A stretch of 64,000 nucleotides of DNA from Alphaproteobacteria bacterium (GTDB lineage Bacteria; Pseudomonadota; Alphaproteobacteria; CAISOG01): positions 19,932-83,931 of the forward strand of contig JBIJBF010000005.1 of assembly GCA_044345375.1 (NCBI GenBank). The letters are read 5' to 3'. Made by a program: the position numbers and the translations under genes. The notes under the pieces are model-generated. The model saw only the letters and a program-made list of their open reading frames with translations. It ran no database searches and had not been told where the DNA came from. Shown in pieces: positions 40,570 through 41,003 of the stretch. Every line of letters begins with the position of its first letter. Positions within the stretch are counted from its first letter, which is position 1.

Positions 40570-40908
40570 TTGCCGGAATCCTCCCCGCTTACCCTGTTGA
40601 TTGACACCGCGCAGGATTGTCGGGTCGGCCTGTTCGCCGGCGACCAGCTGTTGCTATGGCTTGAGGAAGATGTGGGCAAGCACCACGAAACCCACCTGTT
40701 GCCGTTGATTGACCGCGCGCTGTTGCAAGCCGGCAAGCAATTTGCGGATCTCACCCAGATCGCCGTGGTTGCAGGCCAAGGCGCCTTTACCAGCCTCCGC
40801 GTTGGGGTCGCCACCGCCAAGGCTCTGGCCTTTGGGCTGAACCTGCCGCTCTCATTCCCCTCCTGCGCAGGGGTGCCCGAAGGGCGGGGTGGTTCTTGCA
40901 ACAAATAA
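40570..40908 (+). pseudogene. tsaB: tsaB (yeaZ) N-terminal fragment, truncated where a family-A repeat enters the frame
   Basis: PLTLLIDTAQDCRVGLFAGDQLL...[56 protein letters not shown] matches the TsaB N-domain (about 95 aa). Reading then continues into repeat sequence (SFPSCAGVPEGRGG) and stops. No C-terminal half was found within 200 bp downstream (the next gene begins at 41024 on the opposite strand). Confidence 0.55.
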
Positions 40909-41003
40909 TTCGAACATGGTGCTGCTCGCGCGCATCACACGCACACCGAAGGGACCACCCCGTCAGGCTTCGCCTGCCACCCCTCCGCAAGAGGGGAATT
41001 AAG
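40851..41003. repeat. Family-A MITE-like repeat, copy 4 (full form with a distinct ~57 bp core)
   Basis: TCATTCCCCTCCTGCGCAGGGGTGCCCGAAGGGCGGGGTGGTTC...GACCACCCCGTCAGGCTTCGCCTGCCACCCCTCCGCAAGAGGGGAATTAAG. Confidence 0.8.

Follow-up and report, generated by a model that had tools for sequence, protein, structure and literature searches.

How can TsaB, the dimerisation subunit of the bacterial TsaBDE threonylcarbamoyl transferase that makes N6-threonylcarbamoyladenosine at tRNA position 37 (t6A37), be reduced to one of its two lobes, and is such a gene still of use to its host? As a tRNA modification t6A37 is nearly universal, and TsaBDE is being studied as a target for antibacterials. The question is raised by a short open reading frame (ORF) at positions 40570-40908 of a 64,000-nucleotide stretch of alphaproteobacterial DNA (contig JBIJBF010000005.1; the whole stretch is called the window below), which follows nfu and runs at its 3′ end into a multi-copy repeat, family A. 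The initial annotation, made from the letters of the window, had described a tsaB gene truncated by this repeat and had offered three explanations: a minimal protein of ~110 residues suffices, a second copy exists elsewhere, or the gene was recently inactivated. The analysis presented here argues strongly for a conserved, selected, single-lobe TsaB.

Identity and extent of the short tsaB gene

40570-40908, + strand: short tsaB ORF ('mini-TsaB', single lobe), 112 amino acids (aa) from TTG 40570
40474-40908, + strand: alternative longer form of short tsaB, 144 aa if ATG 40474 is used
40588-40851, + strand: TsaB-homologous core, the N-terminal ASKHA lobe (tblastn and phmmer alignments, AlphaFold2, Foldseek, codon-position polymorphism 3/0/8)
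39872-40426, + strand: nfu, with Nfu_N and NifU domains (Pfam), the conserved upstream partner of tsaB in Alphaproteobacteria

The frame 40474-40908 is the one that contains the TTG start picked in the initial annotation, and gene calls differ between 112 aa (JGI) and 144 aa (NCBI/ENA). Its assignment to the TsaB N-domain holds. The ORF matches Pfam PF00814 (E 2.9e-16, profile positions 24-84 of 264) and reaches 79.7 bits with the NCBIfam TsaB equivalog TIGR03725 (cut-off 69.3), where it covers profile positions 2-88 of 212 only, corresponding to 41% of the profile. TsaD models gave 37 bits at cut-offs of 208-296, and in a comparison with the PDB the TsaB chains scored 54-32 bits versus 27-22 bits for TsaD chains. 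The solved YeaZ/TsaB chains (213-251 aa) align to the short ORF over their residues 4-92. The homologous core spans β1, β2, β3, α1, β4, α2 and the start of β5; similarity to TsaB ends at ...GLNLPL (nt 40851), the frame enters ATTCCCCTCCTGCGCAGGGGTGCCCGAAGGGCGGGGTGGTT from 40854 and the stop codon occupies 40906-40908. The initial annotation had seen no C-terminal half before the next gene, and this proved true of the whole 64-kb window, in which neither tblastn with 10 database TsaBs and 11 alphaproteobacterial TsaBs nor a profile hidden Markov model built from 79 full-length TsaBs detected one. The protein thus lacks the two-lobed architecture of TsaB, and with the C-lobe it lacks the C-terminal helix and tail that reach over the interface and anchor the tRNA anticodon loop. 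A search for a second TsaB-like ORF in the window and in ~90 kb of loci from related lineages was negative, and ~50 window ORFs scanned with Pfam included no tsaD, tsaE or tsaC. An ORF of 149 aa on the opposite strand (40455-40904, -), which covers the short gene, has no homology and was rejected as a shadow ORF of a GC-rich gene, since the third-codon positions coincide with the + frame and homology is present in the + frame only.

The position of the gene is that of a tsaB. Among the matches listed for Nfu, from which alphaproteobacterial relatives (61-67% identical in Nfu) were recovered, tsaB lies downstream of nfu and on the same strand in 79 of 80 genomes, at a distance of at most 150 nt in 57 and of at most 4.9 kb in all; the tsaB ORFs of these relatives encode 187-347 aa (median 209), and none is near 100 aa. 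Because the nfu-tsaB order is conserved in relatives, the window gene is a tsaB orthologue in the ancestral slot, and all lineages with the short gene described below carry it downstream of nfu as well. The flanks beyond nfu-tsaB in the window are not syntenic with those relatives. In ten of their loci tsaB is usually followed by a rimI-like ORF of GNAT type and, in Rhodospirillales-like loci, by mucR- and fur-like ORFs (calls read from the translations and hence candidates only); rimI, mucR and fur were not found in the 64-kb window by the searches used for the C-terminal half.

An AlphaFold2 model of the 112-aa protein (predicted local distance difference test, pLDDT, 79.9; predicted TM-score, pTM, 0.75) contains strands at residues 7-12, 17-23 and 26-33, helix α1 at 39-53, a strand at 63-66, helix α2 at 73-90 and a short strand at 94-95, and residues 104-112 of the repeat-encoded tail are predicted to be disordered (pLDDT < 50). 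The 107-aa orthologue P0020 of a sister lineage (see below) was modelled with higher scores (pLDDT 85.2, pTM 0.79) and with a complete β1β2β3-α1-β4-α2-β5 fold, in which β5 occupies residues 102-105 and the ORF ends two residues later. Foldseek superimposed the window model on the N-lobe of YeaZ/TsaB with root-mean-square deviations of 1.5-1.7 Å over 93-95 columns and TM-scores of 0.74-0.77 (query) and about 0.40 (target). According to these models the protein is cut exactly at the lobe boundary; the TsaD-binding helices α1 and α2, whose retention the initial annotation had left to modelling, are present in both.

Age of the truncation and selection on the short gene

A mis-join at the repeat that removed the 3′ half of tsaB had been considered in the initial annotation, and the location of the junction at a multi-copy repeat makes such an artefact conceivable. 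The identical Nfu protein is present on 14 metagenome contigs, the cluster of the short TsaB has 10 member sequences (JGI, ENA, NCBI and Logan assemblies), and all contigs that reach past nfu show the same junction between tsaB and repeat followed by the convergent TPR gene. Different samples and different assemblers gave the identical junction, in at least 10 independent assemblies altogether. It occurs in two haplotypes, the window type with a ~59-nt repeat spacer and a derived type that has lost 69 nt between CCGAAGG direct repeats inside the family-A element; their C-terminal tails differ (...AGVPEGRGGSCNK versus ...GGVPEGTTPSGFACHPSDEGN) and their truncation point is the same. Sister lineages, moreover, carry the same short ORF without the repeat. 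Since independent assemblies agree, misassembly is refuted and we assign it practically no probability. The protein P0001 was suspected to be a contig-end fragment, but it has its own stop codon and a convergent gene beyond it.

An earlier word-based protein search matched the population of the window only, and the relatives listed for Nfu did not include the sister clade. The sister lineages came from an exhaustive HMMER scan of 1.84 billion representatives, which gave 14,213 hits, and from a follow-up profile search. The best non-self match of the scan, P0020, is 55% identical over query residues 2-95 (E 2e-19) and is encoded by an ATG-to-TGA ORF that starts 20 nt past nfu. It ends with ...ALNLPLQLQTA at the same point at which the window protein passes from ...GLNLPL into SFPSC. 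The following clusters, together 34 member sequences, represent the short protein in sister lineages:

P0020: 107 aa; 24 members, of which the 15 listed are of 107 aa or have shorter alternative starts (103, 74, 73 aa); contigs of at most 125 kb
P0169: 107 aa; 6 members, including NCBI MCA3250027.1
P0170: 103 aa; ends with ...LNLPLNLQTA and stop
P0171/P0225: 74/138 aa as called; end with ...LNRPLRLRHLTG and stop

These orthologues, from at least three lineages and 53-58% identical, are frames of 103-107 residues directly downstream of nfu that end 5-7 codons past a LN[LR]PL motif with QLQTA, NLQTA or RLRHLTG. Counted from the start of β5, the ORF continues for these 5-7 codons in the sister lineages and for 18-26 repeat-encoded codons in the window population. 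The clade also differs from canonical TsaBs by its own residues, VGKHHE[STG]HLLPL and [FY]TSLRVGVA[ST]AKALA. The same short gene is hence found in at least four diverged lineages, the window included, and in three downstream contexts, among them degP-phasin-clpS-clpA (loci L212 and L216-219) and convergent uvrD with a SIMPL gene (L213 and L220). The family-A core is absent from the 20-kb loci of the sister lineages. Because the sisters have the short gene with the same end but without family A, the loss of the C-lobe predates the split of the lineages and the repeat is not its cause. The truncation is ancient, being shared by lineages about 45% diverged in the short TsaB protein. Truncation by the family-A repeat, as proposed in the initial annotation, is accordingly not supported, and neither is a recent inactivation of a gene whose short form is common to such distant lineages and under purifying selection; that relatives might have similarly short orthologues had been named there as the observation that would speak against it, and this is what the sister frames show.

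The reading frame is intact in every lineage, a frameshift pair in L213 aside. This 'frameshifted' copy was considered as a sign of decay and rejected: it is a compensating -1/+1 homopolymer pair between which the original frame is perfectly conserved. On the same 26.5-kb contig (JGI 3300049043) uvrD is in three pieces, glnA and pyrD are each in two, and insertion sequence (IS) elements are present; L213 is probably a long-read assembly with indel errors and not a decaying genome. Between its nfu and its short tsaB lies an AT-rich insert of 550 nt that contains two small ORFs.

Purifying selection on the short gene is visible within and between lineages. Seven further sequences of the window population, compared over 92 homologous codons, have 11 variable sites, 3 at first, 0 at second and 8 at third positions; all of the third-position changes are synonymous, and the third-position excess is significant (p = 0.009; Fisher test of third versus first and second positions, p = 0.008). 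From the third-position diversity of the neighbouring genes ~13 variable first and second positions would be expected under neutrality, and 3 were observed (p = 0.001). The ratio of nonsynonymous to synonymous polymorphism (pN/pS) is 0.15, compared to 0.03-0.19 in petA, petB, petC, nfu, the TPR gene and uvrA. Between the sister clusters L212 and L214, 16 synonymous and 11 nonsynonymous changes correspond to a ratio of nonsynonymous to synonymous substitution rates (dN/dS) of 0.23 (p = 0.0004). The short gene diverges at a rate normal for TsaB N-lobes: the window and L216 are 0.79 identical in Nfu and 0.58 in the N-lobe, and canonical TsaB N-lobes at equal Nfu distance have identities of 0.44-0.80 (median 0.65).

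In other lineages the searches also returned short TsaB-like proteins of 121-143 aa (P0008, P0049, P0172, P0185 and P0200; contigs of 23-214 kb). Some of them consist of the N-lobe and a short tail that keeps a C-terminal motif of P-x-Y type, and P0049 carries GQGSFTSLR. Judged from these sequences, reduction of the C-lobe may have happened more than once in bacteria.

Proposed role and rival explanations

TsaB and TsaD interact through a four-helix bundle formed by the N-terminal α1 and α2 helices of both proteins (PMC6009658, PMC9654439). The small and unrelated protein Pcc1 pairs with Kae1 in a bundle of the same kind (PMC6009658, PMC3695523), and Qri7 homodimerises through the same surface (PMC6009658, PMC9654439, PMC3695523). 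We propose with moderate confidence that the window gene is an orthologous tsaB that lost its C-lobe long ago and is kept as a one-lobe partner of TsaD of ~105-110 residues. In this proposal the whole C-terminal lobe and the C-terminal helix would have been lost in an ancestor, and the single-lobe protein would have been maintained since. By analogy with the systems just named, it would bind TsaD via the α1/α2 four-helix bundle, would supply the partner surface that TsaD needs for t6A37 synthesis and could thus act in the manner of Pcc1 on Kae1 or of the second protomer of the Qri7 dimer. The former tasks of the C-lobe and the C-terminal helix, contact to TsaE and anchoring of the anticodon loop, would then be dispensable or have been taken over by TsaD or by another protein. 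Of the three options of the initial annotation, a minimal protein is the one favoured by the evidence. That the one-lobe protein is the sole and sufficient partner of TsaD we regard as a tentative possibility, somewhat short of being the probable case.

Several observations weigh against a working one-lobe TsaB. In Thermotoga maritima TsaB's C-terminal helix anchors the anticodon loop, and tRNA is no longer bound once this helix is deleted; a cryo-electron microscopy study of 2026 describes the helix as essential for holding the loop (PMC13276492), and a requirement for the C-terminal helix or tail is described elsewhere as well (PMC9654439). TsaE contacts the C-domain of TsaB (PMC6009658). 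Without these parts a canonical mechanism should therefore fail, and it follows that either TsaD of this clade compensates, or another protein helps, or the short protein has a narrower role. The GPGxxTGxR motif of the helical-bundle region is altered: canonical TsaBs have GPGxxTGxR and the short proteins GQGxxTSxR (window, GQGAFTSLR) or SPGxxTSxR (sister lineages, SPGS/AYTSLR), by which G, T and R are kept, and P70 and the second G (G75) are invariant in 79/79 relatives. Start codons are unconserved among the lineages, with ATG in two and no canonical start nearby in one (L220). A comparison of the window with the sister clade gives a dN/dS of about 0.5, at a dS near saturation; for Nfu it is 0.08-0.10. 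The four-gamete test fails inside the short tsaB (sites 40585 and 40710); the population recombines, and some of its diversity could for this reason be older than any particular event. Finally, the data cover the 64-kb window and the lineage loci, and the genome may still contain a second full-length tsaB or a separate C-lobe gene, or be without tsaD and tsaE.

The last point bears on the explanation that we consider the strongest rival, though an unlikely one: the short gene is maintained but is not the working TsaB, a second full-length tsaB (e.g. a horizontally acquired one) performs the canonical function and the task of the single-lobe protein is a modified or regulatory one, e.g. the modulation of TsaD. 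The tRNA-binding function of the C-terminal helix in T. maritima, the alteration of the motif across the whole clade and the statement that TsaB accompanies TsaD in all bacterial genomes (PMC9654439) are in agreement with it. Yet the short gene occupies the ancestral nfu-tsaB slot, which makes it the orthologue rather than an additional copy, it changes at a rate usual for TsaB N-lobes, and neither the window nor the lineage loci contain another TsaB-like ORF. A decaying relic is improbable. Here t6A would be made by a self-sufficient TsaD or be dispensable, as suggested by reduced bacteria some of which are without YeaZ and YjeE (PMC3695523), and the N-terminal stump would simply not have eroded yet; the unconserved start codons, the changed motif residues and the repeats inserted on both sides of the gene in the window could be read in this way. 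Against this stand a frame that is intact in all lineages (the L213 frameshifts being a compensating homopolymer pair in an assembly rich in split genes), a third-position excess and a deficit of nonsynonymous changes both within and between lineages, and an end point that stays the same in proteins about 45% diverged; without selection, a stump would neither have remained 58% identical nor have retained its whole fold. Slightly less probable still is a split gene, whose C-lobe and C-terminal helix would be encoded elsewhere, separately or fused to another protein, and would reassemble with the N-lobe. The break exactly at the lobe boundary, after β5, would suit such a split, and the absence of the ancestral downstream genes rimI-mucR-fur from the window indicates that the block may have moved. 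However, no C-lobe-like ORF was detected in the window or the lineage loci at E <= 1, the three downstream contexts are without such an ORF, and the split has no positive evidence.

Compared to known systems, the proposed one-lobe TsaD partner agrees with TsaB/YeaZ in passing the equivalog cut-off, in its position after nfu, in the N-lobe fold and in the helices α1 and α2, and it differs from the solved TsaBs, which have 190-250 residues and two lobes, by the missing C-lobe, C-terminal helix and tail. The closest analogue for its mode of working is Pcc1 of the archaeal and eukaryotic KEOPS complex, a small single-domain partner on the N-lobe helices of Kae1; KEOPS, though, has Bud32 and Cgi121, which aid tRNA binding, and sequence kinship of Pcc1 with the short protein is not expected, so that the likeness is one of analogy only. 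The mitochondrial Qri7/OSGEPL1 and the TsaB-less reduced bacteria illustrate that an enzyme of the TsaD family can work with a partial set of TsaB and TsaE, as long as the surface of the helical bundle is engaged (PMC3695523). They either have no partner or use a second catalytic protomer as such, whereas here the partner would be a dedicated, non-catalytic, one-lobe protein.

In current descriptions TsaB has two lobes and accompanies TsaD wherever the latter occurs (PMC9654439). With genes for flagellar export, MipZ, transsulfuration and cytochrome bc1, the window has the look of an ordinary free-living alphaproteobacterium, and ribosomal protein L21 has at most about 60% identity to named species. 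Apparently ordinary, non-reduced alphaproteobacteria that keep the N-lobe alone would constitute a natural experiment on the minimal partner that TsaD needs. If the short protein suffices as the only TsaB, it would represent a minimal, Pcc1-like partner of TsaD that occurs naturally in bacteria, and a living example of how a Pcc1-like bundle partner can arise from one lobe of a protein of the TsaD/Kae1 type. This would have happened within the bacterial class of mitochondrial ancestry, in which Qri7 later dispensed with partners, and it bears on the question, raised in PMC3695523, whether Pcc1-like partners derive from a subdomain of Kae1/TsaB. Annotation pipelines label these proteins plainly as 'TsaB', which hides the difference.

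Repeat elements and flanking features

40854-40999, unstranded: family-A element, L...R (REPIN-like); L at 40854-40894, R at 40954-40999, ~59-nt spacer
40855-40905, + strand: repeat-encoded C-terminal tail SFPSCAGVPEGRGGSCNK, unconserved; the other population haplotype encodes SFPSCGGVPEGTTPSGFACHPSDEGN
6664-6703, 15197-15236, 32839-32878, 40855-40894 and 47069-47108: window copies of the family-A core GGGGTGCCCGAAGGGCGGGGTGGTT
40423-40550, unstranded: family-B element with 28-nt inverted arms, resembling a miniature inverted-repeat transposable element (inverted repeat, extra arm copies, RNA fold)
41024-42370, - strand: convergent TPR-containing gene, 448 aa (Pfam); downstream neighbour in the window lineage only

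The family-A element lies between the convergent tsaB and TPR genes; position 41024, given in the initial annotation as the beginning of the latter, is the end of its stop codon. The element begins directly after CTGCCGCTCTC, so that the gene, short already, had no more than its last ~5 codons and its stop replaced. Its R unit is an imperfect inverse of L, the inverted repeat has 22-nt arms that are 91% complementary, and 40854-40999 as a whole forms a single long hairpin when folded (-75.1 kcal/mol, z -5.95). In a sister lineage the stop codon lies inside a smaller hairpin, GCC-TGA-CGGGGGTGGGG...ACCACCCCCGTCA (-24.9 kcal/mol), the arms of which resemble the R unit (ACCACCCCGTCAGGC) without more than this resemblance; an older relative of the family-A element may already have been present at the 3′ end of the short gene.

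The sequence ATTCCCCTCCTGCGCAGGGGTGCCCGAAGGGCGGGGTGGTT occurs in 5 copies in the window versus 0 expected by chance, and the 64 kb contain 5 L units and 4 R units of family A. Two arrangements were observed, R then L at a distance of about 25-40 nt (15124-15238, 32780-32880) and L...R with a spacer of 60-100 nt (6663-6817, 40854-40999); similar spacers are present in the copies at 6664 and 47069, and a dissimilar one in the copy at 40855. The exact 25-mer of family A was found on at least 120 metagenome contigs from many habitats, none of those listed being from the organism of the window. In nearly all cases the same (A)ATTCCCCTCC-loop-GGAGGGG hairpin stands before it, and some loci (L125, L158, L140) have it in tandem arrays. 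Of the 120 loci listed, 12 have it directly next to an ORF of the DUF559 endonuclease family, five of them confirmed with Pfam; the window has no DUF559 gene. Family A may have spread widely by transfer, or it may be related, as a non-autonomous form, to an element that carries DUF559. It is similar to repetitive extragenic palindromic (REP) sequences and their hairpin-forming pairs (REPINs) in that it consists of palindromic units of ~45 nt that are multi-copy, intergenic and strongly hairpin-forming and that occur singly, as inverted pairs (L...R, R...L) or in arrays. Classical REPs are lineage-specific, unlike family A, whose 25-nt core recurs letter for letter in contigs with GC contents of 31-65%, and no REP-associated tyrosine transposase (RAYT; Y1 transposase) was present among the ~50 window ORFs scanned. 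An Rfam scan returned two tRNAs only and no known RNA family for either repeat.

The family-B element begins precisely at the stop codon of nfu and takes up the gap between nfu and tsaB, which in the sister lineage is 20 nt long and free of the element. Further copies of its right arm are located at 5658-5688 and 32721-32751, and its RNA fold has -41 kcal/mol (z -2.6). The in-frame ATG at 40474 lies inside this element, and the ATG start codon of the sister lineage corresponds to GCC in the window; the short tsaB of the window starts either with TTG 40570 or with ATG 40474 in the inserted element. In L220 (1249-1340) no ATG, GTG or TTG is present from the nfu stop to strand β1 of the short tsaB, and the product is called with 74 aa from an internal GTG by JGI and with 138 aa, starting within nfu, by NCBI. 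Translation in L220 may use a non-canonical start codon or be coupled to nfu.

The family-B element shows zero polymorphism among about 6 population sequences. A recent sweep read from the lack of polymorphism in 40427-40578 was rejected, as other intergenic spacers are likewise far below third-codon variability. The haplotypes are mosaic, and the four-gamete test fails within 125 bp. The ccmG-ccmH-CBS gene region (42419-43917) has zero variable sites among the population contigs, compared to 54 in the adjacent TPR gene and 38 in petB (within 36341-42370). The mosaic haplotypes and this invariant stretch suggest frequent recombination and perhaps a recent local sweep.

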